64,000 nt of DNA from an uncultured Clostridia bacterium. GTDB lineage: Bacteria; Bacillota; Clostridia; Christensenellales; UBA1242. The notes under the pieces were generated by a model. It ran no database searches, had not been told where the DNA came from, and worked only from the letters and a program-made list of their open reading frames with translations. Positions 25,723-54,519 of this stretch are shown piece after piece; position 1 is the first letter of the stretch; each line of letters starts with the position of its first letter. The stretch spans positions 1,505-65,504 of the forward strand of contig CANQUB010000002.1 of the NCBI GenBank assembly GCA_947626955.1, written 5' to 3'. The translations under genes were made by a program, and so were the position numbers.

Positions 25723-25728
25723 AGACAT

Positions 25729-25755
25729 AAAAAAATGGGCAATGCCCATTTTTTT
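25729..25755. terminator. bidirectional intrinsic terminator
   Basis: An A-run, then ATGGGC (25735-25740), loop AAT, GCCCAT (25744-25749), then a T-run. It lies between convergent genes. Confidence 0.65.
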
Positions 25756-27091
25756 ATTGTTTGAAAATAAGATTTTTGTAGTAGGAAATATCCTTGACTT
25801 GTTCCTTTTTAACATTGCCCGAAAAGGTGATGATTACGTTGTTTTCAGGGTTTAAAACCAGGCTGGCAAAGTCTTTAACCTTTTCCACAGTTAAGGCCTT
25901 TATCGAGCGGCGGTTTTGACGCTTTGTGAAGCGTGGCCAGTCATCACCATAGTAGACCTGCTTGTCTATGTAGCTTTGCACACGTGAGACAGCCGACTTT
26001 TTGTGCTTTAGTTCTCGGTCAAGGTGCATTTGGTAGCCGTCTTTATATTTTTTAACATCTTCCTCTGTTATAAAGTCGTCCTTAAGTCTTGCAATGCTGT
26101 CGCCAAGAAGGCCAAATATCTTTTCAATGTTTTGATAGTTTGAGGCCGTAAACACAATGGACAGCGAAGCGTCGGCATTTTTGCAAGTGGTAGTAAAAGT
26201 TACGCTTGGCGAACTATAGACCAACCCGTTGTCTCTAACCAGGTCTCTAAAGCTTCCCACTTTTTCGAGTAAACACTCCTCAATGACGTGCTGCTCCTTG
26301 TTTAGCGGGAATTTTTCAGGATCGGTAGGGTGGAAGCAGATACTAACAGCCACTCTTTCAATCTCTGACTTTTCGTCGGTTTCGACCTGAAGCTTGTCAA
26401 TTGTGTCATATCTTTTGTCGACAGGGAGAATTAGCGATTTTTCGGTAGGAACTTTTAAGTGTGAAATAAAGTATTTGTCGGCAAGCTTTTTGACCCTATA
26501 AAGCCGACGGCTAGACACAACGCAGAGAATAAATTTGTCTGAATAAAAGTGCCTATTTTTAAAGTCTAGCACATCTTGAATGGTGACCGAATCGAGAAAC
26601 TGCTGGTTTCCAATGCTCTTTTGAACAAAGTCGTCCACACCAGAGTATGAATTGTCCATAAACCATAAATGGCGAAGGAGCACACGGTTGTCCAGCCGCA
26701 GTTTTCTTGCGGTGGTGGCCTGTTCTTCGGCAATAATTTTCTTGTGCTTTTCTAGCACTGTTTGGTCGACCTGGCTGTCGAAAAAGGCCTGGCTGATAAT
26801 TTGCCAAATTAGCTGCTCCTTTTTGTTAGACTGATAGGCAATTCCGCCAAGAAAGTTAGGAGAGGTCATGTAGTTTACCTCTTCCATGAGCGATCGTTCG
26901 GTAAAAACTTCCTCACGGGTCTTGGTGCTGGTCTTTTCGGCCAAAGTGTGCTCAACAAAGTGGGGAAGGCCACCTTCTTCGTAGTGGCTGCCGCACAAAA
27001 AGCCAGCCAAAATGGCCGTGACATTTTTCTCGTGTGCACGATTATAAATTAGAGTTGCCCCATTTTTATAATGAATTATTTTTCTTCTCAT
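25754..27091 (-). CDS. M16 (pitrilysin/insulinase) family zinc metallopeptidase
   Basis: Inverted zinc motif HFVEH (LPHFVEHTLAEK) near the N-terminus, in a 445-aa two-lobe-sized protein. No signal peptide. The start forms an ATGA overlap with the upstream gene. Confidence 0.8.
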   Translation of the reverse strand: MRRKIIHYKNGATLIYNRAHEKNVTAILAGFLCGSHYEEGGLPHFVEHTLAEKTSTKTREEVFTERSLMEEVNYMTSPNFLGGIAYQSNKKEQLIWQIISQAFFDSQVDQTVLEKHKKIIAEEQATTARKLRLDNRVLLRHLWFMDNSYSGVDDFVQKSIGNQQFLDSVTIQDVLDFKNRHFYSDKFILCVVSSRRLYRVKKLADKYFISHLKVPTEKSLILPVDKRYDTIDKLQVETDEKSEIERVAVSICFHPTDPEKFPLNKEQHVIEECLLEKVGSFRDLVRDNGLVYSSPSVTFTTTCKNADASLSIVFTASNYQNIEKIFGLLGDSIARLKDDFITEEDVKKYKDGYQMHLDRELKHKKSAVSRVQSYIDKQVYYGDDWPRFTKRQNRRSIKALTVEKVKDFASLVLNPENNVIITFSGNVKKEQVKDISYYKNLIFKQ

Positions 27092-28989
27092 CTTGTCACC
27101 TTGTTTTTAACGCAGATTATAACAATAAGCAGTATGACATTAATTAACACCAAAAACATTCCAATAAACTGCACAGTGTTCCATGAGTCGGCCTCAAGGT
27201 TGTAGGTGTAGATGTAGCCGGTAAGTTCGTTGCCGTCCTCGTCGTTGAAGGTAATTAGTGTGTAGTTGGTGATTGTGTCTCGCTTGCCGATAACCTTTAC
27301 TCGGTGTCCCTTGTTTAAAATGACATCGAGTGCTTCGCCCTTGTCGTTCGCGGTGACGAAAATTTTGCAGTTGTTACGCATGACGGTAGCGTTTGGCAAA
27401 ACCCTTTCGGTGACCGAACCCACTTCGATAACTCTCGAGCGGTCTATAAAGCCAAGGTCGGTGCCGTTTACAGTTACAAGCAAATATTTGCTACTTGTCT
27501 CATTAGCCCCGAAGGTGGTATAGTCACGAAGAGTGCTCAAAACGTGCAGCCTGGCCGATGAGGAAGTGGCAATTTCACGCACTTCGACATTTTTTTCATC
27601 AATGACGTTTGATGGCAGGCTGTAAATTTTGGTGTAGGCCAACACAGTAACATAATTTTTGGTAAATTCGCCGACCTCTTCATCGGTGATGGTCTTTGTG
27701 TCCAGTGTGCTGACATAGCCATAGTAGTTTTGTCCATTCTCGGTGTAGAGAACATAGCTCCAACCCTCAACAAGGGTGTCGTCTTGGTTATAGCCCTGGC
27801 CAAGAATGGTCACATAATGGTCGACCTTTGCCGTGGCTAGTGGGCTGCGACTGCTTGAGTATGGAGTCTGCTTTACAGGGGTGTCTTTTGCTACTTTCTT
27901 GTAGACATATTCTCGAGCATCATCATATAGAACTTCATGAACATGGTCGTTTTCAAGCAGATAGCCACTAGGGTTGAACACCTCTTCGCCAAGGTCGTAG
28001 ATGACCAGCTTTTGAGCGGCGTTATCTATGCAAGAAATGTAGCCGCCCTTTAGCGAAGAGTCGGTGAGAGAGAACTCTTCATCAAAGGTTATATCTTCTC
28101 TTTCGGCTGGGGTTAAGGTTTTTGCGGCCATGTCGAAGGTAAAGAAGACAATCTTGCTTTCTGAAACTATAGCCAGTTCGTCAGCCTCGGCGTTTTTAAA
28201 GCGAACAAGGTCAAAATTTAGGATATTTTCTTCAATGGTGGTCTCGTTTACTGTAACCTCGCTAACCGAATTTATGGTGGTTGTAGACGTAGGGTCGAGT
28301 TCGCAGGCTAGAAGAGTGGTTTGCTTGCTAAATACAATTATAATTTTCTCCTCATTACAAAATGCCTTTGCGTGTTCGTAAGACTGGACAAGTGCCCCAG
28401 CACCAACACCCGAACTTATACTGAAAGTCTTGGCGTCACTAATGGTTATGTTTTCTTCCTTGCTAATTTTAGCTAGCTCAAATTGACCGCTAACAGGGTC
28501 GGCTGGGTACAAAAGAATGTAGCTTTGCTCTTGACACTTGACAATTTCTAGGCTCTTTGCCGAGGACAGGGTGGTGAGGCTCTCGGTGCCAGTTATGCTG
28601 ACAGGCTGACCAAATGTTTCAGCATTAAGACTGACTGCCGAAAGTGAAGCCTGTTTAGGCTCATCTTGGCCAAGCGAGTAGATAATTAGGTCGTCGTCTA
28701 AAAACAGCATATCTTTAACACCATTTGCCGCTATGCGGTCATTTTCGGCCTCAAATTTATGTGTCTTACCGCTAATTACCTTTATGGTTTGATCGTCTTC
28801 ATCAAAGACGTAGATCTTGTCACCGTTAACTTTAACAAGGGAGACATCAATCAAAAATAAAGAATCTTTTTGCGTGCTTTCGGCCAAGGCCCTTGCGGGA
28901 GTTTTTGCTCCCGCAAAAGGCTGGCCTAGGCCAAGACAAAGGGTTAGAAGTAGTAGAATTGATGTTAGGGTTTTTTTGAAGTTTTTCAT
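27088..28989 (-). CDS. secreted/anchored protein: signal peptide, propeller-like beta-repeat region, about 3 SH3b-like modules, C-terminal TM helix
   Basis: Signal peptide LLLLTLCLGLGQPFAGA. Repeated strand pairs (KIYVFDEDDQTIKVI, DLIIYSLGQD, KIIIVFSKQTTLLACE, SKIVFFTFD, QKLVIYDL). SH3b-like ends (YYGYVSTLDT, LGFIDRSRVIEV, LTGYIYTYNLE). TM helix FIGMFLVLINVILLIVIICV. The RBS sits within the 11-nt spacer after the giant ORF. Confidence 0.7.
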   Translation of the reverse strand: MKNFKKTLTSILLLLTLCLGLGQPFAGAKTPARALAESTQKDSLFLIDVSLVKVNGDKIYVFDEDDQTIKVISGKTHKFEAENDRIAANGVKDMLFLDDDLIIYSLGQDEPKQASLSAVSLNAETFGQPVSITGTESLTTLSSAKSLEIVKCQEQSYILLYPADPVSGQFELAKISKEENITISDAKTFSISSGVGAGALVQSYEHAKAFCNEEKIIIVFSKQTTLLACELDPTSTTTINSVSEVTVNETTIEENILNFDLVRFKNAEADELAIVSESKIVFFTFDMAAKTLTPAEREDITFDEEFSLTDSSLKGGYISCIDNAAQKLVIYDLGEEVFNPSGYLLENDHVHEVLYDDAREYVYKKVAKDTPVKQTPYSSSRSPLATAKVDHYVTILGQGYNQDDTLVEGWSYVLYTENGQNYYGYVSTLDTKTITDEEVGEFTKNYVTVLAYTKIYSLPSNVIDEKNVEVREIATSSSARLHVLSTLRDYTTFGANETSSKYLLVTVNGTDLGFIDRSRVIEVGSVTERVLPNATVMRNNCKIFVTANDKGEALDVILNKGHRVKVIGKRDTITNYTLITFNDEDGNELTGYIYTYNLEADSWNTVQFIGMFLVLINVILLIVIICVKNKVTR

Positions 28990-29000
28990 GTTTTTATCCT

Positions 29001-32000
29001 TTAAAACAAATTAACTAATATGTCTAGGAAGTCTCGATCGGTTTTAAACACAAGCGAAATCATTTCTGCCACGTACAAATACCATGTTGAGCCTACCAAT
29101 ATTATTCCGCCGACAGCATTCAGTACTGGCCATGGACTATACCTATGTTCGTTCGAACGAATTCTTACTCTTGGATCAAGTTTTAGCTGCAGTGTTATTT
29201 TGTTTGAGCCTTGCTTTGCTAAGCTTTCACCATCAAGACACATCATACCTCTTATAAGTCGTCGGAAACTTCCAAGATATTTGAGTGCTCCATTGAACAA
29301 ACCACCAAAATAGTTTCTTAGAACCTTACCAAATGGCAATTTGTTGCATGTTCCTTGGTCTTCATCGGAGTAGGCAAATGTGTTGTTACTTGTGCTAATA
29401 CCATTGAAGCCGGCATTTTCGTACGACAAATTCCATTCGAGCGTAGCTTTAATGAAGTAGTCATAACCTTTTTCAGCTCTCCAAACAACTTTGGCGTCTT
29501 TTGGATGGTTGACTTGTTTTTGATGGTGCTCACTAAGAACGTAGTGATAGAACACAAGGTCGTCGGCATGGAAGAAAGCGTGATAGGAGTTGACATCAAC
29601 GCCATTTCGACACAAATTGAATACGTCGATGACAGTGTAGTGGAAGAAGTTATTGATGTTGTTTTGAGCTTCTTGTCCGGTTCCAAAGTCTATGTTGAAG
29701 TATCTATACAGCAGGTCGGCCATGGCTTCTTGATAGGTATCTAGTTTAGAATAATCTTTCCAAACGTCTTGGCAGGCTGATAGATAATCTTCTCCACGTC
29801 TTTTACCACCAAGGTCATTGTTGCTCGATCGGTCACCCGTTGGTGCAAGACCCACAATCTTTCCGTCTTCGCCAACATCCTTGATTATTGAGGACTCAGT
29901 GAGCATTATTCGAAGAACTTTGGCAAGTTCAAGATCATTCTTGGTTCCTTTTGTTGGATTTGCTTCAAGTATATCTACGATGTCTAGCAGCAAGTTTAGT
30001 AGATATCCACCGTTTTCCATAATAATTATGTAGGCGTTGGTTATTTCGTATTGATTGAGTAAGTCAATACAATCTGCACCATTGTTATTGCTAATCTTAA
30101 GCTTGTTTAGGTCTGCATTTTTAGTAAGGTTTACTACAGAATTGTCTCCAACCTTTACGCTGGCTTCTAGTGTGTAGGCAAATTGGAAATATTTCAAGAG
30201 TACATTTACATCTGGAAGTAGGGTGAGTGGCTGGTCACTATCTTCAAGCTGGTCAATATAGTCTGTATAGAAACCATTGACTTGCGTTGCAGTTTGGACA
30301 TTAATTTCGCTTTGGTTAGTTGAAACATATCCAGGGGTCTCAATTCCCGAAGCATAGATGACTTTTTCACCTCCCGATATATTGCTAAGAGGATTATTCT
30401 GGGTTATCCTAACAGTAGGGAAGCCGTATTCAGTGGCCGAAACTTTGTAGTCTATTACAATTGTTCCTTTCGAGAAATCAACTTGAAGCGCACCTTTCTC
30501 TGTGAAGGATTTTGGATCAATCTTTTCGCCATCTATTTCTAGTGTGAAGAGATTGGCTTTGAGTCTTGGTCCGTCAATTCCGGTTATTTCATCTGGTTGA
30601 GTGTCGATATATCTTAAAATATTGTCGACCTTTGGTATGAGCTTATTATCCGCACCGATGTAGTATTCATATTGGTTATCCCCAAAACCATAGGCATATA
30701 GCGACGCTGGAACATTTCCATCTGTGCCAAATTTCAAATCGAAAGCCTTTTGATTGTTTTTATACTTAGCTTTGGCATAGCTATTGGTATTTTGAGCGGT
30801 GAATGCTACTGTCTTCATTTGATCTTTACTGTATGTTGTATGATTATTATAGGCAATGTAAACTGGTTCGCCTGAAATATAAGATAGCACTTGATTATTG
30901 CGATCTGCACTCTTTTCAATTGAAATTAAGCTGGTTTGGATTCTTGTTGGAATAACATATTTTTGCTCTTGATACTCGTCTATTTCTGAAGATGAATAAA
31001 TTAAATTGCCATCAACATCATTTATTGCATAGACATATGGGTCATGTTTGTCAATGGTTATTTGAGTATTGGTGTTTGCTCGGTTATTCTTGTTTGAACC
31101 GTTTGTGTAAGTATAATAATATGTTCCGGCCGAAGGGTTTTCCCAGTTTGGAGCTTCACGGATATAGTCGGCGTAGGTGAGGTAGGTGTCTCCCATCTGA
31201 TCATTACCCTTACCATTTGGTGCATAAACATAGGCACCAAGCACATCGGTGATATTTATAATTAACCTATATGAAATGTACGAATAGTATGCATCAATTA
31301 TTATGTCTTGGTCGATGTCATAGATATACAGGTTATTTCTCTGGTCGGCGCCGGTAAACTCTCCGGTGCTTGAATCATAGAGGCCATAAACATCATCATA
31401 TTTCAACCTATACACACCAGGCCATTTTTCATAGCCCTCATCGGTAAACTCATGAGCTGGATCTGCCGAGTCGTAGGCAATTTTAATTTTCCTTTCATCT
31501 GATGTGGTGAACTCTTTCTCGGTTGCCCAACCGGCGAATTGAACATAGCGGTGAGATACCGAGGTTAGAAGGGTAGGAGTGTAGGCCTCAACCAGCCTGT
31601 CACCCTTTACATTGGCCGATTGAACTTCCTTCTTGGTCATCCTTGATATGCCCTCGCTGCCCTCTGGGTCGTCCTCATCATACATGACTTCATTGTCTTC
31701 CATGAACTGGTACTGGTTGACAGTTATTGAGAATACTCTAGCTTCGTAGAGAGCATAAACAATGGTATCGTTTGAAAGGGTTATGGTAGTCTCGGCGCTA
31801 TAATAGTTGCCTCTACCATCTTTGAGCAGGCGGTAATTGTTAATGAAGACATAGCTTGTGATAGGAGTGGTATGGCTTTGCTCATCAAAGTCTTGGACAT
31901 TAATGTTGTTATAGTAGCTGGCTGAGATGAGTATGAAGCCAAGGAAGAAGTAGTTTTCTTTGATGTCAGCCGAAAGGGTTACTGCAGTATTTCTTGGAAT

Positions 32001-44000: not shown

Positions 44001-47000
44001 GCCAAGACCATGAGTTAGAATATACGAATCCTCTTCGCTGTATTTGTTATAGGACGAGAAGGTAGGATAGACCACAGGGTCATTTGTTCCCGTCTCTAGG
44101 AAATATTTACCAAGAACGGTAACGTCGTCATTGGTTGTTATGAGCTTTGCCATTCTAATTAGCTGGTTGGCATATCTTGGAACACTTATGGTTTCTATCG
44201 AAGCAACAAGCTCAAACAAATTTGTAGCGAGACCCGATTGAGGTCGTACATTATTGCCATTAGGGTCTTGAATTATATCTCCATCAGGATCTAGCAAATT
44301 GCCATTACTATCCACTATTCGTTGCCCATTTGGATAAGAAGTAGGGGGTTCTGTGCTTCCTTCACCATCTTCGGATGGAGTGAAATTAGCATAGTATCTA
44401 TAAGCTTTGTTATAGCTCAATTCAATATTAGGCACAACAACTTTGTTATCGAGTGTAACACCAAAATACAGGTCAACAGCTGATTGCTCTTCGTCTTCTC
44501 TAATTTGAATGGATGGAATCAAATAATTCAGGTAATTATATTTTGTGGTCGAGACAATTCTTTCCGAAGAATACTCATATTGACTGTAGGTTTGTCTTAT
44601 AGCTGTATCTGGTAAAGCTGCTCCGTTTTTCTTTATACCTGTTATAACAAAACGGCTAGCAAGCGTGTTGTCAACATTAAAGGAAAATTCATATTTTTCA
44701 GTGTCAAGCACAAAGGCTGCTACTGTATTAACAACTTGTTCGGGATCATTGGTGTAGTTGCCATCTGCGTCAACGCCTACCGATATTGAGTTGACAACCT
44801 TATAGTATCCAAAGCCATTGCCTAAATCTGCATGAACCATATCATAAACTTGATAAGACCAATTGCCATCGCTATATTGCGGTTCATAATACTTGAATAA
44901 GAACTTCATATTGTATTTGTTTTCAACCTGGACAAATTTAGCAATAGCAATGTGCAGTATGTTGTTTTCACCATCTTCAATTTCTTGAACTTCACAAGTG
45001 TTCTTGTAGTTGGCAGGGTTGGTGATATCACTGTTAAATCCATAAGATACCAGACCTGATGCAGCGTAAAGTGTATTTGTTTTGACTTTTAACCCAGAAT
45101 CAACGACTTGGCCTCCAACACTTGCTGTGAGCATGGACATGAAGACCGATCTTCCGTTATTATCTTGTAAATCACCAGTGTTAGTTCCGGCAAAACCGCC
45201 CCATCTTTTTAGCTTGCCGTTTGCAGTCTTATACCACAATACCACGCTTTGAGTCTCTTCGTTTGCGGTAATACTTTGAATATATTGACTGACAAGAACT
45301 TCGACTTCTTCTCCAAGCTTTTCAATGTAATAGTAGCACGAGGAAATAATGCTTGAGCCCATGGCATCACGGAAGACGATAGCTTTTTCTTCACTACTTT
45401 TCAAAATATCCCTTCCAAGCATTATACTTCTTTGGCGAACAAGATCATCAAAGTTGGTTATCTCGGGATAGAAGTGCTCATCAACAAAAGTAGTGTCACC
45501 GTCTTCGCCTTCAATGGTAGTCTTTTTGCCAAGAGGAGACTTAAAGTATTTATCGCCACTTGTCGTGGTCACAATGTCATAGTAGACATAAACATTTTGC
45601 TCGCCGTCGCCATCAGGATTTTTATATGTCATTGCCGTTCCATAAACGGTAGCAATGGCACTTACATTTCTCATTTCATGATCAACAGCAGGGTTGTTAG
45701 AGTTGTTAACAGGATCAACTTTTACACCATTTATAAAAATTTCTTCTTCGCCAGTTTGGGTGTTGCCGCTGACTAAGACGTCATCATCATTTACCATGGT
45801 GTAGGTGATGATGGTGACATCATTGTTGCTGCTAGAAAGGTTGTAGGCCAGGACTTCATAGGTTCTTTCGTCGGTTTCATCAAACTTGTTATAATACATG
45901 ATTGTGTTTCCACCGACTTTGGCCGTGCGGGTATAGTTATAGAACTCAGTTCTTCCGCCTCGGGTTATTTCTATTTGCTGCCCATCCACTGTTCGCTTTA
46001 CATTTCCATTGTAAGCGCTGGTGGTAAAGCGGTAGAAATTTGAACGTGTGTAACTAAAGGTGTTTGCGTCGTAGAGCATCTTTGCAACATATTGCTCACC
46101 TGTTAATGAAGAATAGAACTCAAAGGTGTTTTGAGACAGGGTTTCAACATTATATCCAACCAGCGAGCAGTTGGCAGGGAGCTGGATGGAGATGATGACG
46201 TTTGTGGTAACATAGCCATTGTCGTCAACCACGCTGGTCACACTTCTAATGACCTCGTAGCTAATTCCAAGCTGCTTTAATAAATTAAGGTAGGTTGCAT
46301 TGTCGTTTTCATCCTTAAGGCAAGTTTCGCCGTTCTCATCAATTCCGTAGACATTGACAACAAGATTGCTTTCTTCTTCAATCAGTGTAGCAATAATGCC
46401 TGAATTTTGTCTATCGGTGTAAACAGTCTCATTGTCCATGACGGTAAGACACTTTTTGATATTGCCATTAAGGCTCTTTTCACGCATTACAGCCGAGTGG
46501 AAGGTGTATGGCACAGATATATTTTCAAAACCAAAGCCATCGGTTTTGCCAAGTTTTTCGAAGGCGATAAAGTCGCCACATTCAAGGCCGCTGACCGAGA
46601 ACTGAGACCCCTCAATGGAAATGGTGATTGAACGATTACGATCCTGTTCAACCATCAAATTGTTGCCACTATAAGTCCCTTTTGCAGTATCTGTAACCGA
46701 ACTGGTCGAGCTTTGGCTTATCTGGCACAAAATTTCATTGTTTTTATTATAGACAATGATGTCAAAGCCGGTCAAATACTGGTTTCCGGCACCAAAGAAG
46801 TTCTGGCTATCAAAAATTGTGCCCGAGAGGCTGTAGTTTCTAACCTTGGCATGGTTGGCATAAAGTTTACTTCCGGCCAGTCTGGTGCTAGAAGTTACCA
46901 CAAGGTCGCTTCTTAGATAGAGTGCATCGTTTGAATTAACCTCGGCAAGCTCTCCGATATTATTTACGCCGTAGATATATTCCTTTACATATTGGCTAAG

Positions 47001-48479
47001 GGCGGTTGACTCTTCGGGTTTATAGTACCCGGCTTTGTAAGCAAAATCGGCTGGGAAGTCATCGCTTAGTCCATACATGAGGTATGTCACACTTCCAAAG
47101 GCCGACGAATTTGTCTTTAGTGCCTCAGGAATACAACTTAGACCCTCTTTTGTCACAGAATCGTAATTTTGAAAAATATTGTAGTCATTAGAGTACATAT
47201 TCTTTGGCATGGTCTCTTTAATGACGGCAGTGTTTTCGGCCTTGGCATTTAGAGTCCATGGCTGGAAGGCGTAGTCGTAGTCGTTAAAGGCGTTGTAGAC
47301 TTTTTGACCGTTAGAATCAAAACTCTTTACTGTCCTTGACTCACGGGAAACAATAACCTGACGCCCCTCAGGGAAGGAGCCAATAAGCATGGAGTTATAT
47401 TCGGTGTTAGAAACCGAGTCGACCATGCGTTTAACAGTGTGGAAATAGAACGAACCCTCGTCATACAAAAGCCCTCCATAGTTAAGGTCTATGGAGTTAG
47501 GGCTATAGGCTTCGAAGGTCAGAGTATAGGCGTTGAATGCAATAGTGTTCGAATAGAGCGAATCGCCGCGGTTGGTATCTTTTGAAAGCGCCTTTACTTT
47601 AAGATATCTATTTGTGCCACCGCCTTCAAGCATTGGGTTAAACTTTATCATGAAGTTGCCGGTGCGGCTGTCGGTAAAGTAGGTCATCATGCCTTTTGGA
47701 CACTCGATAAACCCATCGCTGACATCGCCTTGAATACGGCCCGAGCGATAGTAGAAACTAAACAATCTGCCATCCTCGTTTTCTACGGCCGTTTGGTCGA
47801 CAAATGGGTTGCTTGCTCGGTCAATATCGTAATCAACACGAGGGTTTTCGTTCAGCACAACTCTAAAAGTATAATACTTGCCGTCGATAACGACTTCGTA
47901 GTCAGGGAAGGAAACCGACCTACCATTAAGCACATATTCCGACTTTGAGTATACAGTGGAAATTTTATTTTCGCCGCTTGACGATGTGTCGGCATAGAAG
48001 TGGCCACGGCCATCAAAAACGCAGTCCCAAGTTACATTTGCAGGGGCAGAATCGCCATAGAAATAGTCGATAACTTCGCTTCTAGATGTGGCATATATAG
48101 GCATCTTTTTGCTGCCGCGAACGTATGGCTCATTAAAACGCGAATCAAGGAAGAAATTCTTCAAATAGCCAATCTGGTCCTCTTCCATAGAATCAGCCGA
48201 GGCATAGTAGTACTGAAGGGGCCAATAAAAGCTGCCTGAATCACTGCTGATATTTTTAGCCTCGCTGGTAAGATAGGCCTCACGGTCGTATGGATAGTAT
48301 TCCAAAGAAGGAGCATACAGCCTTAAATGGCCGTCTGCATCATAGGACGGGTTAATGGTGGATGAACCGCTTGTCAGCTTGCAGGCTGCAAAGGTGAACA
48401 GCCCCAATACAGCCATAAAGACCACCGACAAGATTAGCATTATCCTTGATTTGAATTGACTTTTAGCAGTAACTTTCAT
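29001..48479 (-). CDS. giant cell-surface protein (6,492 aa) with a lipobox-like N-terminus, many degenerate Listeria-Bacteroides (Flg_new/InlB B-repeat)-type modules, a unique C-terminal module and a C-terminal hydrophobic helix
   Basis: Uninterrupted 19,479-nt ORF with AAGGAGAA RBS 7 nt upstream of ATG 48479. N-terminus MKVTAKSQFKSRIMLILSVVFMAVLGLFTFAAC (Cys33). At least 12 copies of an aromatic-x-F-x-G-(W/F/Y)-(Y/F) motif lie between about 41.6 and 31.5 kb. C-terminal segment WPVLNAVGGIILVGSTWYLYVAEMISLVF. Confidence 0.9.
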   Translation of the reverse strand: MKVTAKSQFKSRIMLILSVVFMAVLGLFTFAACKLTSGSSTINPSYDADGHLRLYAPSLEYYPYDREAYLTSEAKNISSDSGSFYWPLQYYYASADSMEEDQIGYLKNFFLDSRFNEPYVRGSKKMPIYATSRSEVIDYFYGDSAPANVTWDCVFDGRGHFYADTSSSGENKISTVYSKSEYVLNGRSVSFPDYEVVIDGKYYTFRVVLNENPRVDYDIDRASNPFVDQTAVENEDGRLFSFYYRSGRIQGDVSDGFIECPKGMMTYFTDSRTGNFMIKFNPMLEGGGTNRYLKVKALSKDTNRGDSLYSNTIAFNAYTLTFEAYSPNSIDLNYGGLLYDEGSFYFHTVKRMVDSVSNTEYNSMLIGSFPEGRQVIVSRESRTVKSFDSNGQKVYNAFNDYDYAFQPWTLNAKAENTAVIKETMPKNMYSNDYNIFQNYDSVTKEGLSCIPEALKTNSSAFGSVTYLMYGLSDDFPADFAYKAGYYKPEESTALSQYVKEYIYGVNNIGELAEVNSNDALYLRSDLVVTSSTRLAGSKLYANHAKVRNYSLSGTIFDSQNFFGAGNQYLTGFDIIVYNKNNEILCQISQSSTSSVTDTAKGTYSGNNLMVEQDRNRSITISIEGSQFSVSGLECGDFIAFEKLGKTDGFGFENISVPYTFHSAVMREKSLNGNIKKCLTVMDNETVYTDRQNSGIIATLIEEESNLVVNVYGIDENGETCLKDENDNATYLNLLKQLGISYEVIRSVTSVVDDNGYVTTNVIISIQLPANCSLVGYNVETLSQNTFEFYSSLTGEQYVAKMLYDANTFSYTRSNFYRFTTSAYNGNVKRTVDGQQIEITRGGRTEFYNYTRTAKVGGNTIMYYNKFDETDERTYEVLAYNLSSSNNDVTIITYTMVNDDDVLVSGNTQTGEEEIFINGVKVDPVNNSNNPAVDHEMRNVSAIATVYGTAMTYKNPDGDGEQNVYVYYDIVTTTSGDKYFKSPLGKKTTIEGEDGDTTFVDEHFYPEITNFDDLVRQRSIMLGRDILKSSEEKAIVFRDAMGSSIISSCYYYIEKLGEEVEVLVSQYIQSITANEETQSVVLWYKTANGKLKRWGGFAGTNTGDLQDNNGRSVFMSMLTASVGGQVVDSGLKVKTNTLYAASGLVSYGFNSDITNPANYKNTCEVQEIEDGENNILHIAIAKFVQVENKYNMKFLFKYYEPQYSDGNWSYQVYDMVHADLGNGFGYYKVVNSISVGVDADGNYTNDPEQVVNTVAAFVLDTEKYEFSFNVDNTLASRFVITGIKKNGAALPDTAIRQTYSQYEYSSERIVSTTKYNYLNYLIPSIQIREDEEQSAVDLYFGVTLDNKVVVPNIELSYNKAYRYYANFTPSEDGEGSTEPPTSYPNGQRIVDSNGNLLDPDGDIIQDPNGNNVRPQSGLATNLFELVASIETISVPRYANQLIRMAKLITTNDDVTVLGKYFLETGTNDPVVYPTFSSYNKYSEEDSYILTHGLGEDADFKYYSLDYTSRQLVVEGMPGFKLLAGMPYPNPILFFSIRHKYGEDAIVNISFDIKDAFYAELLGTNIAPEDSNQVRDFCTYAFKDTLLNLTLNDYINKTYWILDNKTFKPIVGYVQFDSRPAGVSDDMCFYYNGKYYVPYTTLNNELTIQDVGINDGDSYLYFADVISPSDKYLNKVYRSYIDERGNMAFKEINYEEELILWRTDSTKIEQVPVYDVHTYYEGQDGILYFTSGSENLDENQVCNGLEGLTPGITQSDNGVFNYDEVMLGGVAYAYRTKASENFELNGYWFDRQVNLINAYNARDAYFLTGREMAVFVASPTVVVQDDAGQSYIYRFKMWRVYKRYNSEILYLDKSIQPNDQYNAILQFAPSTAGYYVIMPVYQRVFSVDIGTAVIDGALNKGGSIDLSYDKDSEEANMEGLVDRNLYLTDFYETVENGKTGYYYGQINGSIFLYFTGKFKTITDEETGEERTEPIFALNKNIFSFNYQPDIANLSTEEATLYFEIKRDGNNVTGFEPIRILRELKEGVRGVVPIWHEGGNDRYFYELASGITANLELEDEGFYLENHNDPVTFGELFNYAFNSYFYYDSITSNTSNRVSMPLCYDENTNEFSSLDLSSLTSLRQGNSSIKQNVNILTVLIYWNWYQNSHAFTNNDAVRKVLKAAGAYGLKSVAGVTIDRNMSEQYLLNITGLGSIFGGAVAHIVSNIQLNQIDTTSFEFKLSTYLPFTSLIKDTVGYSFSLLYSEMPTFVAHIEDGRKHSTHASLTDGELFADENGNVYPSQQFKSSYIDRDAEIILTPKPAIGYRLEGWYKCIFDEELGLWLTTDEKVTNSEYSYSDEIFRAYYNEYFRQYYYITPFYTQDATRGYIYYRDVSHNEPAVVPDSMLSRVRGFFIATGSKDDPNYIQVYRPNEASDYYYYDTAFTRVVEDQEVFEMTYEAAIKQIGDDYYVLNGIRIYKNVTEDGVLHYYRTRTQGNVVVDENYNLIIHSLHCNVRYVAKFIEIYNEYIYVEDEEYSGIKVEAVYYTSQDVEKNLEEPMHLRSSSIDGAYVNATDAYDYNAYGLDRSLFKLYDGDRASNFSEFLNKDFTYREGQSQRKDKPYVGADNYSSLLSGFGGKTSVYRVNADKDPSLDKSLVMKSMYFDPMTTVYIVVSVQSQYNLSIHSLGMNSNYVLEPILYPTDDFINYNQSARETDRVDYYYYIFRVTYDRDPENEYGSYIVHPTRGDSMSFDVLAGNYLDFYNKAGFVHYDNFGNKIDYDLGADINGLQTVNLDKYFDRLHLASDVLARVRGKNYENIQDGLNQLSLAMKQPGLYYVDHVTDSTSSTEYSDAFTIFNQIRQVRRDKDYQPPYLIKSGQQNFVNLSTIPIYSYTIQSMTIDQFEQEEDSTDFKYEENGKVILKKGATAHNLLNGLYAAIGTNGRTYLGTGEKEELEYSYKNHGDNGYYVGDTPFVFDTHYKGLPYGTDGRDHTLLEDFAFAENSVVLLDGTSAAENGYAFVGWYEQKYDRQTGLWSPMTIMSHDLEKPYLSLATSDTVIVALYKRVVQVEFTYDMSKITINFANNGLDSLGQPVTQSITGNMCSITGKFCFDTELQITVIPSGGYRFDGFNFVNKDASFATPIKLDLNNDHITYFDKDGNSDYDGTAYTYGDMRLNGVFGMSLPVKEIASLTDRLTNVKLEALTKKVNLVYIDIENYASSRGQNSEYTFNNVDFALYDLSDSASPKLLVETDGSKFDGYVDSILNLDGKDSTQYPICASLVGGHLALYGYFDDEMSGKLALITLQRAEEGATIFEWYINGCGQNTNDLAATFPGLNTDAYKGQKSGEFIINFEYSGDLVELNTNNYFELSTNNSAYYAKAIIETTQQVIFTHSYVDSVNDAFIAGTQFPENLGAISLLIFNGKRFLDNEEFEENGQITFDGTGVYTFSSNAILQIATKSQFISYNGSVYAFLGYFKTEYNYQQGVSEVEFVGTDAQSLVLSPTGVYEIKYVKIDKVTIDADGQGSMQINDQGNIRSGANSFSTTVFGYYEEGGYNYVLNGATLELDCYIIENYTYPTVTVTPSNPGPTLLTENHEGYIHVTISRIETDITISVLYQRGTRISISQRLYRTIDMTTDPEQANIGALTRIMMGQNSYGLSGTFALNTDISLSLLDSTKDYFYFIGWFKDGQLLSSEYTYNITVKEDMAVEARFTYYLNLSVRSLSLTSNTTVNGFSATVSYDDVRDGQKERAFTNSTSDLFRVPSGVKLHVVETRTNNLDRYFFNYWRNGKASNPRMLSDQKDAEIILNIDDGTRQSGSTYEIYRVEIQAIYSQVSTLHVTKNITISEDDKDQSNYYFGGQMTNAFKSLFDIVIIYTDAQNQQKTVSLSSDLEKDIVYISNTKLTIRISISSVVSDRYFVSSIVNYHGGQSERLDNALQLITLQYTAQSSSLTVDFVPSIQIQLMRELDGQVDNYDDIALSYSIRENAVESEDGTLTDATKNFNIQAADLSYSFTTSTENQRYIFVGWYINETLVSREATIDQDIYKITRNATIVARYITTVNLTIEREVDNEPSTMDLTIWAVGNIIENKGTNETPDTSVKLYSMNSDRSSMSLNLHLGGELVLAADHVSGYRFMGFTVYDNGTDISSNLLYVADTAKTVARLAVNTVSNLIVTAVYYKEYAISYKTTSFARDSVNISSTTPSGGSVVAPQYFYTSQENEINISVNTNAGYKVKAIFVNQEAIDISRSTYSYSFAVPEGKGDIMVDIRFVQETNINFYVAVNGSVDKSEINSKFGLDFNQIDAITVTQNNENTINVRFNNTNELRYNYYYGYINDNLNLSALRTLSGNGKTYYFQGWYVYNGQNVANSTYALSYNYNFDMTVSDDISLVAKYEEYENVSVFDDTEHYYTIYDSREEHYIDSRDISLSSSQEDRANQIYTIYGEKYMFVGYYTTIAFGNTIDELKLSNTYSTTQTAKYDGVVANVTARFVKLSQYTIDYRTANTFSLYSQVVTNYSGQDTSARLGLTNTSTKITSTSLAGSYVHNQYNAAAGHQVSSGSSFTVGTDVSTVAKVNIIGYNTVVECAAHVNNVTTTQNAADGAKSSVVLNSRATISTTFSITQTSSSKLVVTVYDPSTSTTQSFEVTASQSQTRQLVVGSVVNLYVELSADEQFLEYVIGGDNYRNILYNYTLPSDLSGSLTINAVIGTLYTLVVAENDENAGKVSISERGGLAGVNGYYSLTVNAYKNYAITDILVKSSTSDYVSLLNGGTGLESLAIVNTTIPTYSTFDSNLSNYVTSYTIELSLKANLMLKVVYKHVTTINFIIWTASMAEGSNNPTRAKSTYNLYIYEDKSPMTLDGLIEFLTELDNFNFLDKVGAIDRNAFAYNGQTFTSGTIEFATESYITIEYTTNIKAKMKVEIVINSDDATKYNIPTDGLNIKYGDKQVSSYNSSTEFECSWGSGTALFASDTNNYFVFKGYCYKRMGLAINNTNSQMLMIDPSIITSSIEIEDGVYVIYALFEEIINTLTLDANYDSSSFSITVNGTAVAPNNHYTDSALGNLYVNFDFDTMTYTITYPNSYVKANVKVSVSALNFEESTSDSTYLDALKLEKFYEKDTTDNNVRLRFYRFVDSDGNTLNTRYDTSAEIDLSKHVSDTVITAEAKRLYRVEFAYDYCSDDFTIGLYYIKTNNLTIDKTKIKESFNETDLDKAIITYWAEEGMILSAEVKIDNPDELVAGGYIFKGILGNYANAGVFNKNLLNKGYVFGTEPQLSGSQDWWKQKLELNRYPFVLATALISSANVSDNATLDKFIFYANAPISLLADFLSLGLTGKTDIFAVLANPEYDGTIKANYVQTGDSMVSQQGFVLGFVSEDALDVELTIEEKSNLIYHSDNLDGSYTKYQHTNLYLLGLDGLKELSLLNDRKVVYNNPRYGHVFYTYNFNKSAKDPASNIKQYIISIAVDRYVSLLFKTVKANKKFYTDDSMFTMLNLSRHAEIDNVRYEIRDNDNLRGPTKEINSSFIPRNTAVTLSADIKENYFFLGFILISASYYNNINVQDFDEQSHTTPITSYVFINNYRLLKDGRGNYYSAETTITLSNDTIVYALYEARVFSITVNQYQFMEDNEVMYDEDDPEGSEGISRMTKKEVQSANVKGDRLVEAYTPTLLTSVSHRYVQFAGWATEKEFTTSDERKIKIAYDSADPAHEFTDEGYEKWPGVYRLKYDDVYGLYDSSTGEFTGADQRNNLYIYDIDQDIIIDAYYSYISYRLIINITDVLGAYVYAPNGKGNDQMGDTYLTYADYIREAPNWENPSAGTYYYTYTNGSNKNNRANTNTQITIDKHDPYVYAINDVDGNLIYSSSEIDEYQEQKYVIPTRIQTSLISIEKSADRNNQVLSYISGEPVYIAYNNHTTYSKDQMKTVAFTAQNTNSYAKAKYKNNQKAFDLKFGTDGNVPASLYAYGFGDNQYEYYIGADNKLIPKVDNILRYIDTQPDEITGIDGPRLKANLFTLEIDGEKIDPKSFTEKGALQVDFSKGTIVIDYKVSATEYGFPTVRITQNNPLSNISGGEKVIYASGIETPGYVSTNQSEINVQTATQVNGFYTDYIDQLEDSDQPLTLLPDVNVLLKYFQFAYTLEASVKVGDNSVVNLTKNADLNKLKISNNNGADCIDLLNQYEITNAYIIIMENGGYLLNLLLDIVDILEANPTKGTKNDLELAKVLRIMLTESSIIKDVGEDGKIVGLAPTGDRSSNNDLGGKRRGEDYLSACQDVWKDYSKLDTYQEAMADLLYRYFNIDFGTGQEAQNNINNFFHYTVIDVFNLCRNGVDVNSYHAFFHADDLVFYHYVLSEHHQKQVNHPKDAKVVWRAEKGYDYFIKATLEWNLSYENAGFNGISTSNNTFAYSDEDQGTCNKLPFGKVLRNYFGGLFNGALKYLGSFRRLIRGMMCLDGESLAKQGSNKITLQLKLDPRVRIRSNEHRYSPWPVLNAVGGIILVGSTWYLYVAEMISLVFKTDRDFLDILVNLF

Positions 48480-48548
48480 GAGTTTCTCCTTGGGTTATAC
48501 CTTAGTTTTCGCATACGCACGAATATATATTATTAATATAACAAGCAT

Positions 48549-48576
48549 ATTTTAGCACATTATGTCGACGGGTCAA
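48549..48576 (-). promoter_or_regulatory. candidate sigma-A promoter for the giant-ORF operon
   Basis: On the minus strand: TTGACC (48576-48571), a 16-nt spacer ending in TGC, and TAAAAT (48554-48549). The predicted leader is about 60-70 nt. Confidence 0.45.
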
Positions 48577-48816
48577 AACATTTTAATGGCTTTTGGAAAT
48601 TTTTTGAATTTTTTTTAAAACTAGACAGGCTGCTGTCTGCTTTTGTGTTCTAACATAATATCAAACATATGTTCGAAATGTTTTAGCAAAAAAAAGTTGG
48701 TTTTTATGTCAGTGGCAAAATAAAAAAACCGCCTAAGCGATTTACAATTTGCTCAAAGCCAAGATAAACCCACTTGACAAATAACGACAAATTTCGACAA
48801 AATAGAGGAGACAGAC

Positions 48817-49440
48817 ATGACAAAAGCAGATTCAATTCTAAAATACAAAAAAGCTTACCAAAAAAACACCAATGAAAAGCTAATCGCCGAGGCCCAAAAT
48901 AGCGACCTATTTGCCTACATAAAGGTCCTTTTAAAGGCCTACAAAAACATACCAAACATCATTGCCATTCTCGATAAAATAATTGAAAAGCGTGCCACGA
49001 GCGTGATTCCAACTGCCTCTATCTATGGCGGGAAGTTTTCCACCTATGGCGAGATTGACCATGTCATTGACCTTACTGCAAGAAAAGACAAGCTTTTAAA
49101 CCTCTATGTTCTAACCGGGGAAATGCTCTCTTGTCTTGAAAGTGAGGACAAAAGGCTGCTCACTTTAAAATACGTCAAAAAACTCAGCACGCAAGATATT
49201 GCCGCCTCACTAAAGGTGACCGAACGCACTGTCTTTCGCAGGGAAAGCAGCATATTAAACAAGCTGGCCATTTGCCTTCTAAAAAAGAACTGGACAAGTA
49301 TGTTTTTGCAAAGCCAGATTGGGGATGAACCATGGCTTAATGAGCTCTACCAAAAGGTCAAAGCCGACGAGCTGACCAACCAAGCCCGCTCAGAGAAGGT
49401 GAGCCGCTACAATAGGTCGTCATCATCGATTACTTCATAG
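48817..49440 (+). CDS. sigma-70 region-4-like HTH transcription regulator (ArpU/RinA-like or sigma-like; family uncertain)
   Basis: The segment EDKRLLTLKYVKKLSTQDIAASLKVTERTVFRRESSILNKL matches the sigma region 4.2 / LuxR-like HTH pattern. GAGGAG RBS. Divergent from the giant ORF. Confidence 0.6.
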   Translation: MTKADSILKYKKAYQKNTNEKLIAEAQNSDLFAYIKVLLKAYKNIPNIIAILDKIIEKRATSVIPTASIYGGKFSTYGEIDHVIDLTARKDKLLNLYVLTGEMLSCLESEDKRLLTLKYVKKLSTQDIAASLKVTERTVFRRESSILNKLAICLLKKNWTSMFLQSQIGDEPWLNELYQKVKADELTNQARSEKVSRYNRSSSSITS

Positions 49441-50405
49441 GTAGGAAACACAGGTTTCAGCGAAGCTGACGCCTCTTTTTTACGGTTTAAAAATGTCTCT
49501 TTTCGGCTTAACGGCTGGCCCTCAAGCTCATCTATGCTATGAATTTTACGATCACTCTTTTTGGCGGGTTTTTCGGGCTTTGACAGCTCCTTTTCAATGT
49601 CTTTTGCCCTTTTAGTCGACCGCTTTTGACCCACCAAAAGTAGTATAAACACAAGCAGTATTGGAAGGCAAATTAGAGCTATCAAAATGCCCTTTACAGC
49701 ACCGCTAATTGCAAAGCTTTCGGCGTCGGCTTGTTCTTCGTTTTTGGGCGGCTCAATAATATCTTCGGCATTTGCCTTAATGGGGGTGAGATTGGTGGTT
49801 CGCTCGCTATAAACATAGCCCTCAATAACGCTTGTGGTGCTGCTAGATGGGGTATAGACAGCGAGATACCAAATGTTTGAACTTCCCCCAACCGGAATGT
49901 CGCCCACAATCTGGCCAACATAGATAAGCGAGCTTGCACCGGCTGGCACAATCTCGAGTATCTCGGCCGAATCGCTGGGAGCTAAACGAATATGCGTGCC
50001 CGACTTACTGCTGATGTCAAAGGTAATACCCTCAAGCGTTGGCTGAATTGGCACAAAGTCCACAACCTTAATCTTGCTTGCATCAACATAACCAACCTGA
50101 CCGTCGTAGTCCACCCGAGCGATGGAGGAACTCACATGACTCAGCACCACCACAAAATAACTTTCGGGCAAAATAAATTTGACATTGCGATAGGAAAGGT
50201 CGCTAATGTCTGAAGTGGTAAACAGGTGACAGTCCTTTTTAATCTTGGCATACTCAACCTGGCTGGGCACATAGGCTGAAGCTCTGCCATAAAACATTGG
50301 CGCCTGCCTAGCCGTTCGAAAAATATAGCCCGCACTCATGACCACCACCAGGGGAGCAAAGACCATTATAAAGGCCAAATTTAAAACACAAATAAATCTT
50401 TTCAT
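49407..50405 (-). CDS. membrane protein: N-terminal signal/anchor, 2 SH3b-like modules, TM helix, charged cytoplasmic tail
   Basis: N-terminal hydrophobic segment FICVLNLAFIMVFAPLVVVM. SH3b-like ends GQVGYVDASKIKVV and IEGYVYSERT. TM helix GILIALICLPILLVFILLLVG. ATG at 50405; the track start at 50411 is TTG. Confidence 0.65.
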   Translation of the reverse strand: MKRFICVLNLAFIMVFAPLVVVMSAGYIFRTARQAPMFYGRASAYVPSQVEYAKIKKDCHLFTTSDISDLSYRNVKFILPESYFVVVLSHVSSSIARVDYDGQVGYVDASKIKVVDFVPIQPTLEGITFDISSKSGTHIRLAPSDSAEILEIVPAGASSLIYVGQIVGDIPVGGSSNIWYLAVYTPSSSTTSVIEGYVYSERTTNLTPIKANAEDIIEPPKNEEQADAESFAISGAVKGILIALICLPILLVFILLLVGQKRSTKRAKDIEKELSKPEKPAKKSDRKIHSIDELEGQPLSRKETFLNRKKEASASLKPVFPTYEVIDDDDLL

Positions 50406-50513
50406 GGCCAAAAGTTTAGCAAATATAGACCACCATTTTAAAGGCGAAAAAGAGCAGTTTTTAATAAAAGACTGCGAATAAATAAAATCTTTGTAACAAG
50501 CAAAATTTCGGTC

Positions 50514-50538
50514 AAAAACGCAAAAATATTGCGTTTTT
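50514..50538. promoter_or_regulatory. perfect 10-bp inverted repeat (candidate operator) upstream of the terminase gene
   Basis: AAAAACGCAA (50514-50523), spacer AAATA, TTGCGTTTTT (50529-50538). A third half-site, AATTTTGCGTTTTTT, lies at 50555-50569 and abuts the RBS of the terminase gene. Confidence 0.45.
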
Positions 50539-50580
50539 TCATCATTTTTCGATTAATTTTGCGTTTTTTAAAGGAGGAGC

Positions 50581-52014: not shown

Positions 52015-52375
52015 CAAGCTTTTAAGCACCCTAAAAAAGGTTCTACTCAAAAAGGCCAAGGGCTATATGTATAAAGAAGAGGTCGATGAGTACGAAAGTG
52101 CGCAAGAAAAACCAAAAAAGGAGTCTGTCGGCGTCAGTCAGCAACTCGATTTTTCCAGCCTTAATATAAACTTTAAACCGGTCAGCACTCCAAAGAAAAG
52201 TTTGACCCTTGTGAAGAAAAAGGTGAGCAGTCATCATGTTCCGCCCGACCTTGCTGCCATAAAACTGCTAATGGACTATTTCATAACGCAGAACGACGAC
52301 GAACTGTGCAATCTTAGCGACAAGGAACTAAATGAGCTTAAGGAGAGCCTAATTGACCAACTCAAAAAATTATAA
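52004..52375 (+). CDS. hypothetical phage protein (123 aa, K/E-rich)
   Basis: The ORF overlaps the TerL end by 11 nt. The segment HHVPPDLAAIKLLMDY faintly recalls the C-terminal region of small terminase subunits. That resemblance is from memory and is weak. Confidence 0.5.
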   Translation: MEDNKLLSTLKKVLLKKAKGYMYKEEVDEYESAQEKPKKESVGVSQQLDFSSLNINFKPVSTPKKSLTLVKKKVSSHHVPPDLAAIKLLMDYFITQNDDELCNLSDKELNELKESLIDQLKKL

Positions 52376-52387
52376 AGGAGAGAAAAA

Positions 52388-54507: not shown

Positions 54508-54519
54508 AGGAGAAAAAAT

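Follow-up and report, generated by a model that had tools for sequence, protein, structure and literature searches.

A podovirus-like gene transfer agent (GTA), FpGTA, has been shown experimentally in Faecalibacterium prausnitzii, where a 10.5-kb operon carries the genes for TerS, TerL, portal, scaffold and major capsid protein (MCP), plus lysis and tail genes (Nat Commun 2026, PMC12946183; FpGTA I protein accessions RCH50849.1 and RCH50851.1). The same study saw GTA-like packaging in metagenome-assembled genomes (MAGs) of Christensenellaceae, to which no genes were assigned. The subject of this analysis is a stretch of 64,000 nucleotides from an uncultured bacterium of the Christensenellales (contig CANQUB010000002.1, positions 1,505 to 65,504), referred to as the window. 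It contains a 19.5-kb gene for a predicted lipoprotein of 6,492 amino acids (aa), here called the giant protein, and beside it a cluster of phage-like genes. The explanation that we favor, with a probability of about 0.6, is that these are two separate, divergently transcribed units with a common control region of 337 bp. Unit 1 is a giant surface lipoprotein with its partner protein, and unit 2 is a phage-derived, GTA-like cluster.

Unit 2 and FpGTA have much in common. Both are chromosomal operons of about 10 kb in Gram-positive gut Clostridia, with genes for TerL, portal, scaffold, MCP and conserved hypothetical proteins. Both encode podovirus-type proteins and holin or lysis functions, neither has replication or integration genes, and both are near-ubiquitous in their lineage. 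The likeness is one of architecture, unit 2 being known here from its genes. Among the 120 closest matches listed in an MCP profile search (6,529 matches), none was named Faecalibacterium. The two also differ. In unit 2 the tail-fiber genes and holins adjoin the head genes, whereas those of FpGTA lie in a second locus. Unit 2 has a sigma-region-4 activator with a LexA-like box and two SH3b/transmembrane (TM) surface proteins at its locus, unlike FpGTA. In one subclade the gene of a 6.5-k-aa lipoprotein is attached to it, and nothing comparable has been described for FpGTA. PBSX and RcGTA share with unit 2 a fixed, structural-only cluster that is vertically inherited and slow-evolving, with release by lysis. 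PBSX is SOS-inducible. Both are myovirus- or siphovirus-like, whereas unit 2 is podovirus-type (NF033394), and no giant surface-protein gene is associated with them.

The giant protein can be set beside two described classes. Giant Gram-positive adhesins with InlB-B repeats are, like it, exported, beta-rich, very large and fast-evolving, with Flg_new/Flg_new_2-type modules. The giant protein differs from them in having a lipobox and a C-terminal tail rather than LPXTG, SLH, GW or choline-binding anchoring. It further differs in its orphan core, its family length of 6.3–7.8 k aa, its lack of BLAST-detectable repeats and its linkage to a phage cluster. The giant packaged proteins of N4-like and crAss-like phages are also multi-thousand-residue proteins encoded beside podovirus-type head genes. 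Such giant virion proteins have no export signals and contain RNA polymerase modules. The giant protein of the window, unlike them, has a lipoprotein signal, no PHROG match, a gene on the opposite strand and a housekeeping-type promoter. Giant Gram-positive surface proteins and GTA-like clusters are each a known kind. What is new is an unnamed giant family with an orphan core, a lipobox plus C-terminal tail and a conserved length of about 6.5 k aa, together with its consistent association with a domesticated capsid locus. That locus has a new composition too, a sigma-region-4 activator behind a LexA-like box plus two SH3b/TM surface proteins, in a lineage with unexplained GTA-like packaging.

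The giant gene (29001–48479, minus strand) is preceded by an AAGGAG ribosome binding site (RBS). Its stop codon is separated by an 11-nt spacer with an AGGA RBS (AGGATAAAAAC) from the ATG of a 633-aa partner gene, SH3b1 (27088–28989, minus strand), whose end overlaps the start of an M16 metallopeptidase gene (25754–27091, minus strand) by ATGA. A palindromic intrinsic terminator (AAAAAAATGGGCAATGCCCATTTTTTT, 25727–25757) with a 14-bp stem and T-runs on both sides works two ways and is common to this operon and a convergent SSB-like gene. Beyond the intergenic region lies sig (48817–49440, plus strand), which encodes a 207-aa regulator with sigma region 4 only. It is followed by SH3b2 (49407–50411, minus strand; 334 aa), and the convergent 3' ends of sig and SH3b2 overlap by 34 bp (49407–49440). 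An earlier reading of this DNA, made without database searches and called here the sequence-only reading, had described the 19.5-kb ORF and all five open reading frames (ORFs) with their coordinates and strands. It had also described the 11-nt spacer with its RBS, the ATGA overlap and the intergenic distance. An ORF check bore out the ORFs, and the junctions were confirmed as well. The candidate promoter (now placed at 48549–48576) and the bidirectional terminator that it had listed were both borne out, and its calls of an HxxEH peptidase and a sigma-region-4-like regulator stood. It missed the large terminase, P22-like portal and MCP genes that come next on the right of SH3b2.

The giant gene and the phage-like genes keep company across genomes. 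The loci compared comprised eight with giant-family members identified by exact sequence plus L111, which was reached through its SH3b1 homolog. In 7/7 loci reaching far enough upstream, giant and sig diverge, SH3b2 follows in the orientation of giant, and then come TerL, p123, portal, a scaffold-like gene and MCP in the orientation of sig. The linkage of giant to the cluster was also 7/7 in loci found by giant homology alone. It survives another left flank in L006 and L010, where DegV/PolA replaces SSB, Pda and ParC. On the other side, an SH3b1-like gene of 600–650 aa, co-oriented with giant, directly follows it in 9/9 loci reaching downstream. The earlier view of the giant protein as an exported surface-type protein is supported. 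The giant N-terminus was found in only 14 GTDB loci, all of a subclade with MCP at least 67% identical to that of the window. The tail-like and tail-fiber-like genes p795 and p690 were present in 10/11 giant-bearing loci and in 0/15 giant-less loci. In one locus (L110:10001–30737) giant is split into two consecutive ORFs of 3,578 aa and >4,822 aa, 190 bp apart, and the linkage is kept. The break lies close to where the conserved N-terminal half gives way to the repeat-rich half.

The structural operon of unit 2 is podovirus-type, occupies 50581–63421 on the plus strand and runs on past the window end. It begins with TerL (50581–52014), identified by Pfam Terminase_6N/6C, and continues with p123 (52004–52375), a portal matching Pfam P22_portal (52456–54507), the scaffold-like p231 (54520–55215) and MCP (55225–56406), which scored 286 bits with NF033394 (capsid_maj_Podo). 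Then follow p131 (56484–56879), p188 (56882–57448), p498 (57445–58941), p795 (58950–61337) and p690 (61349–63421), the last two tail-like and tail-fiber-like. PHROG matches in the operon were to major head, virion, tail and tail-fiber families. The right boundary was taken from GTDB loci. There the conserved block consists of sig, SH3b2, TerL, p123, portal, p231, MCP, p131, p188 and p498, the optional p795, p690 and F16, and at its end DUF7934 and two holins, the first of BhlA type. Past the holins lie RNase J, O-methyltransferase, U32 peptidase and a sigma factor, and the left flank is formed by SSB, the polysaccharide deacetylase Pda and ParC/ParE. The same flanks were found in the window and in L004, L005, L008, L090, L108, L109 and L111.

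Between these housekeeping flanks there is no integrase, repressor or replication gene. As in a GTA, structural and lysis genes thus occupy a chromosomal locus without mobility functions. The cluster is inherited vertically at a fixed genomic position, and its structural genes diverge in step with ParC. An MCP alignment search put the number of GTDB species genomes with a relative at 242. Of these, the best 80 were 59–78% identical and all belonged to uncultured gut or rumen Clostridia, several of them labelled Christensenellales, Christensenellaceae, Christensenella or Catabacter. Among GenBank phages the best MCP match was 29% identical. In IMG/VR the MCP occurred on only 16 contigs, 15 of them <20 kb, and the giant core had no match. 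Flanks, gene content and divergence do not fit a mobile prophage. Judged by its genes, unit 2 appears to be a domesticated, vertically inherited, particle-forming cluster with the genomic hallmarks of a GTA or a defective phage.

The sig and SH3b2 genes are core genes of this cluster. Both occur without giant in L090, L052, L055, L057, L059, L067 and L082, and there they always lead the terminase operon. In L090 the order is ParC-Pda-SSB-sig-SH3b2-TerL, and giant, SH3b1 and M16 are all absent. The phage-like cluster is therefore older and wider than the giant gene. In Sig, region 4 alone was detected (Sigma70_r4_2 29.1 bits and Sigma70_r4 26.3 bits, both above Pfam thresholds); region 2 was not detected, and all NCBIfam sigma models scored far below their cut-offs. 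The best whole-length match was to phrog_36, a family of phage transcriptional regulators (E 2e-11). Late-gene activators precede terminase genes in Firmicutes phages, and Sig resembles these activators. SH3b2 was found in 33 GTDB loci in addition to the window copy. It has hydrophobic segments at residues 1–34 and 230–265, two SH3b1-like repeats and a charged cytoplasmic C-terminal tail. The TM segments of the SH3b-SH3b-TM layout proposed earlier were found, and the SH3b part is weaker. The window copy has no Pfam match, L110 gave one match of 15.6 bits, and the tie to SH3b1 (residues 409–633) was made by hhalign only, at 84% probability. The SH3b label of this predicted protein is tentative.

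Two further sets of loci bear on the distribution of the cluster. In the giant-less L060, L081, L082, L086 and L088 an exported protein of 750–900 aa, F21, is encoded between TerL and p123 (e.g. L082:4627–6891). A signal peptide, a TM segment at the C-terminus and motifs like those of InlB-B repeats were recognized in F21, and no similarity between it and the giant family was detected. In distant loci (L061, L077, L080 and L085, also L072, L074, L084, L086 and L091) a p123-portal-scaffold-MCP-p188-p498 block occurs, with MCP about 60% identical and no recognizable TerL, sig or SH3b2 nearby. The block adjoins OGG-, NfeD- and FloA-like genes in L077, L080 and L085. Its terminase may lie elsewhere or may have been lost.

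The giant ORF cannot be due to chance, because it is 6,492 codons long. The frame is undisrupted in more than 35 diverged homologs, and the family reaches full length in over 35 lineages at 23–39% identity, which speaks for a real gene under selection. A search with the C-terminal 5,000 residues returned 28 homologs of 4.5–7.8 k aa, all without a family name, of which 26/28 were 6,322–7,789 aa long at 23–42% identity. The central conserved core extends over about 1,600 aa, and no relatives outside the family were found for it among 1.84 billion representative proteins. The profile of its best-conserved part (residues 1440–2090) matched only 44 clusters, nearly all of them giants of 6.3–7.8 k aa, the others being fragments or, where two genes encode the protein, its N-terminal half. 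Because the matches are so few in a search of this size, the family is regarded as an orphan.

The giant protein begins with a predicted lipoprotein signal peptide (48381–48479, minus strand). Its N-terminus, MKVTAKSQFKSRIMLILSVVFMAVLGLFTFAAC (...LGLFTFAAC, lipobox TFAAC, Cys33), fits the PROSITE PS51257-type lipobox pattern. The lipobox Cys was present in 37/37 full-length family members (>5,000 aa), and an FDxxGxLR motif just past it is conserved too. At the other end, hydropathy revealed a hydrophobic segment (residues 6459–6477; 29049–29105, minus strand) followed by a ...F..L.N-L-F tail. The segment and a ...N-[LIM]-x-F tail were kept in the homologs inspected. No [LIS]PX[TSA]G motif was found anywhere in the giant protein. 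The sequence-only reading was thus right about the absence of LPXTG, and its view that the protein has no anchor, so that retention may depend on SH3b partners, is contradicted by the lipobox and the hydrophobic tail. With these signals the giant protein would be an exported lipoprotein, held to the outside of the membrane by a lipid at Cys33.

The giant protein has a high content of Y, N, S, T and D, and BLASTP self-comparison detected no internal repeats at E<1e-3. Conservation peaks at residues 1500–1900 (56% mean identity), with more peaks up to about residue 3100, and falls to only about 20% identity among homologs in the C-terminal half. The best-conserved part of the core (42210–44162, minus strand) has H98, E119, D135, D274, H276 and C301 as invariant residues in core alignment A2. 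An AlphaFold2 model of this part, built from a 19-sequence alignment, was all-beta and of low confidence (pLDDT 57). A zone at residues ~2300–5515 (31932–41576, minus strand) resembles diverged InlB-B or Listeria-Bacteroides repeats. The giant protein scored marginally with Flg_new (28.0 bits, cut-off 27) and Flg_new_2 (18.8 bits, cut-off 23.6). It contains 13 Y.F.GW motifs, versus 3.1±1.8 in shuffles, and 12/13 lie inside the zone. Several homologs carry precomputed PF09479/PF18998 matches. Otherwise, Pfam, PHROGs and NCBIfam searches with tiles of the giant protein gave nothing but marginal Flg_new-type matches, and no PHROG match. PDB sequence searches with two tiles and the core profile gave nothing significant. 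The best Foldseek match of the core model in the PDB had E 0.01 and a TM-score <0.1, which is uninformative. No similarity was found between the giant protein and p795, p690, p498, SH3b1 or SH3b2.

While its length is kept, the giant sequence changes rapidly. L111 is a close relative of the window (identity 97% for ParE, 91% for ParC and 92% for Pda). Over the C-terminal 3,328 residues, its giant protein shares only 39% identity with the window copy, and no stop codon interrupts these 3,328 codons. SH3b1 and M16 are 68% and 46% identical between the two. Because dS is saturated (~1.5–2.6), only dN was usable. It was 0.57 for giant (3,328 codons) and 0.059 for ParC. The giant gene is thus kept open over 19.5 kb while changing about ten times faster than housekeeping proteins. 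Across the loci, identities were 23–31% for giant, 24–37% for SH3b1, 27–47% for Sig and 35–43% for SH3b2. They were 68–77% for TerL, 62–70% for portal, 70–77% for MCP and 63–76% for ParC.

The partner SH3b1 has the layout of a type-I membrane protein, with a signal peptide, a beta-propeller at about residues 45–345, SH3b/GW-like repeats and a C-terminal TM helix (603–632). Its AlphaFold2 model had a pLDDT of 71, with the propeller part confidently modelled. Foldseek returned 438 matches at E<=0.001, and the top 50 listed were nearly all beta-propeller or WD40-type. Against viral structures only generic propellers were found. Structure prediction and profile searches thus supplied the propeller of the architecture claimed earlier and gave no fold for the giant core and tiles. 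The SH3b part of that architecture is weaker than claimed. SH3_3 scored 17.1 bits in the window copy, below the cut-off of 27, 33.1 bits in the ortholog of L108, which passes, and 25.6 and 25.1 bits, just below, in two others. A protein of about 600 aa, F27, passes with both SH3_3 (34.1 bits) and GW (36.2 bits). F27 occupies the SH3b1/giant position in the giant-less L052, L055, L057 and L059, has an SH3b1-like architecture and aligns with SH3b1 in hhalign (97.9% probability, E 3e-13). Because F27 is found there without giant, an SH3b1-like gene is not exclusive to giant-bearing loci.

The M16 protein matched Peptidase_M16_C (58.8 bits, E 8e-16), its N-terminal domain being below threshold at 16.6 bits. 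Its HxxEH motif (HFVEH at residue 44) is kept in all 4 orthologs. The gene is present in 4/9 loci (window, L004, L005 and L111) and missing from L006, L008, L010, L108 and L109. Neither a signal peptide nor a TM or hydrophobic segment was found. Because of this distribution and the lack of an export signal, M16 does not qualify as a conserved protease, nor as one that processes proteins outside the cell. It is a recent accessory add-on found in the closest relatives only, and its predicted location is the cytoplasm.

An alignment of the region between giant and sig from six loci yielded four conserved elements. The first is a SigmaA-type promoter for giant, TTGACC-16-TGcTAAAAT (48549–48576, minus strand), whose extended -10 TGnTAAAAT is kept in L004, L005, L006, L008 and L010. 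Next comes a covarying hairpin with a GACA..TGTC core (48622–48639), situated between the giant promoter and a LexA-like box. Its dG is -10 to -15 kcal/mol in 10 giant-bearing loci (window, L004, L005, L006, L008, L015, L018, L022, L028 and L033), and the stems differ yet still pair. The hairpin might act as an insulating terminator or as a palindrome bound by a protein. Weaker GACA..TGTC palindromes occur in the giant-less L082 and L090 too.

The third element is a 14-bp palindrome, CAAACATATGTTCG (48662–48675), which resembles a LexA (Cheo/SOS) box. On the reverse strand it reads CGAACATATGTTTG (GAAC-N4-GTTT) and matches the clostridial LexA operator consensus GAAC-N4-GTT[CT] (GAACnnnnGTTT; PMC4234289). 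It lies 16–25 nt past the hairpin and 142 nt upstream of the sig start codon. A box of this kind was found upstream of sig in at least 20 loci, including the giant-less L052, L055, L059, L067, L082, L088 and L090. Because it accompanies sig whether or not giant is present, it is assigned to sig. In the window it is 86 bp upstream of the giant -35, and for that reason it is unlikely to repress the giant promoter. The fourth element, just before the sig RBS, is a promoter-like site with three direct repeats, TGACAAA/CGACAAA/CGACAAA (48774–48803, plus strand). The repeats may be an operator; they are about 10–11 bp apart and are kept in L005, L006 and L008.

These elements can be fitted into one scheme. 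Unit 1 would be an operon of giant and SH3b1 with a housekeeping-type promoter, probably expressed constitutively, to which M16 would have been added recently. The giant protein would be held by a lipid anchor at Cys33 and would be beta-rich, with the conserved core, the InlB-B-repeat-like run and the hydrophobic C-terminal tail in that order. SH3b1 would cross the membrane once, with its beta-propeller outside the cell and its SH3b/GW repeats binding the wall. The two proteins would most likely form a very long, fast-evolving surface fiber or coat. Unit 2, from 48817 onwards, would be a chromosomally fixed, domesticated podovirus-like cluster and not a regulator of unit 1. Sig would probably be SOS-inducible through the LexA-like box, and the capsid operon would then be induced via this activator. 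The giant gene would have been gained in one subclade, between a pre-existing SH3b1-like gene and the activator gene, and the extra tail and tail-fiber genes appear to have come in the same subclade.

Several points weigh against this explanation. The co-occurrence of giant with p795/p690 comes from one clade and may be a single historical event. In a mirror-tree comparison the giant N-terminus gave partial r values of 0.27 with p690 and -0.02 with p795, no excess over other fast-evolving genes. In 7 giant-bearing loci no LexA-like box could be detected; in the window, the distance of the box from the giant -35 and its position beyond the hairpin argue for separate regulation of the units. No fold or function could be assigned to the giant protein by PDB sequence searches, the core model or Foldseek. 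Its surface location is predicted from sequence signals only, and the GTA-like nature of unit 2 is read from genomics only. The unbroken linkage and the p795/p690 association hint at a functional connection, with the giant protein as a receptor, a shield or a release aid for particles, and we lean weakly towards some functional link. Such a link is no more than plausible, because the giant-bearing genomes form one clade and the mirror-tree gave no specific signal. In the most specific form of it, GTA-like particles produced by kin cells under SOS induction would have the hypervariable giant protein as their receptor, or would be kept off by it as a self-shield. The giant protein and p795/p690 would then be a lineage-specific lock-and-key pair from a single locus, limiting DNA transfer or tailocin-like killing to matching cells. 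This form is speculative and rather improbable.

The two units could also be neighbors and nothing more, an ordinary fast-evolving adhesin or coat operon in a permissive intergenic site whose linkage merely reflects a young, syntenic lineage. The separate promoters, the hairpin between them, the constitutive type of the giant promoter, the lack of specific co-variation with the tail fibers, the confinement of giant to one subclade and its absence from the viral contigs of IMG/VR all fit this view. It is less well able to explain why the linkage outlasts both the rearranged left flank of L006 and L010 and the split gene of L110 at ~23–29% giant identity. The gain of giant also coincides with the gain of tail and tail-fiber genes inside the operon, and surface proteins, namely the SH3b1-like ancestor and SH3b2, are long-standing in the phage-like locus. 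We regard mere neighborhood as possible though doubtful. The sequence-only reading had instead joined all five genes into one dedicated surface module, with Sig controlling giant, both SH3b proteins anchoring or assembling it on peptidoglycan and M16 processing it. The five genes are indeed adjacent, giant and sig share the intergenic region, and conservation of the neighborhood was found in part. Giant is with SH3b1 in 9/9 loci, and giant, SH3b1, sig and SH3b2 co-occur in 7/7 loci reaching that far. The remainder did not survive comparison. The regulator and the second SH3b protein belong to the phage-derived cluster and head the terminase operon in many giant-less genomes, an SH3b1-like F27 exists without giant, and M16 is missing in 5/9 loci and predicted to be cytoplasmic. 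The giant protein has a lipid anchor of its own, and its SigmaA-type promoter is divided from the sig control elements by the conserved hairpin. A five-gene module is largely refuted by these comparative data and is now unlikely.

Unit 2 might alternatively be an ordinary, possibly active temperate prophage at a favored site, carrying the giant operon as "moron" cargo. Its structural genes are complete, holins are present, control by an SOS box is prophage-like, portal-MCP blocks of a related kind are found in different surroundings (L061, L077, L080 and L085) and a few IMG/VR fragments carry the MCP. Between the housekeeping flanks, though, no integrase, repressor, replication or att features were found. 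These flanks are shared by genomes with a ParC identity of only 63%, with structural proteins diverging in step with ParC. No complete IMG/VR or GenBank phage genome carries the module. An active prophage is accordingly a quite unlikely account. That the giant protein is itself a virion component or cargo, like the giant packaged proteins of N4-like and crAss-like podoviruses, or a giant tail fiber, is suggested by its place beside a podovirus-type head-tail cluster and its co-occurrence with extra tail genes. The conserved Sec/lipoprotein signal, however, would export it before capsids assemble in the cytoplasm. Its gene is on the opposite strand under a housekeeping-type promoter, it has neither a PHROG match nor similarity to tail proteins, and most cluster-bearing genomes are without it. 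We give this idea hardly any credence. Two units with a common control region remain the best supported explanation.

An unnamed lipoprotein family of about 6.5 k aa, tightly kept in length and diverging very fast in sequence (39% identity where ParC has 91%), is a clear target for the cell-surface biology of uncultured gut and rumen Clostridia. The cluster may explain the GTA-like DNA packaging observed in Christensenellaceae (PMC12946183), and the LexA-like box before the sigma-region-4 activator offers a testable regulatory handle. Surface proteins recur at this phage-derived locus: an SH3b1-like protein and SH3b2, joined by the giant protein in one clade and by F21 in a different one. The recurrence suggests a functional coupling between domesticated particles and envelope proteins, for which there is no description among Gram-positive GTAs. 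If the lock-and-key idea were true, DNA transfer or killing would be restricted to cells displaying the matching giant protein.

Some smaller features were seen around the two units. Between SH3b2 and the start of TerL lies a terminator-like hairpin (50514–50538, AAAAACGCAAAAATATTGCGTTTTT). TTTTGCG(T)n motifs are repeated in 50412–50580 and recur upstream of TerL in most compared loci, not clearly in L110. They may belong to a late promoter or take part in antitermination. Ordinary bacterial chromosome makes up the left third of the window, with PheST, TsaE/B, a Mur ligase, Ddl, MurG and ParE/ParC-like topoisomerase. The SSB-like gene convergent with the giant operon (25048–25722) encodes an SSB paralog with two OB folds (NF004476, 291 bits), which also matches the uncharacterized phage family phrog_26861 (E 3e-34). 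Its relatives occur in temperate-phage replication modules (Dulem virus 39), and here it is a fixed chromosomal neighbor of the locus. It was considered as a phage marker or prophage boundary and dropped, being a curated bacterial SSB paralog that is found in phages too. A 587-aa ORF (22294–24057) between the ParC and deacetylase genes has one TM segment and no family match. It is 345–765 aa long in related genomes and evolves fast (51% identical where ParC is 91%). Farther left, a second LexA-box-like palindrome (CAAACATTTGTTCG, 13289–13302) lies in a 61-bp gap between a divergent WYL-domain helix-turn-helix regulator (12325–13281, minus strand) and an unannotated 238-aa ORF (13343–14059, plus strand). 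By its sequence, it suggests another SOS-controlled pair in the window.

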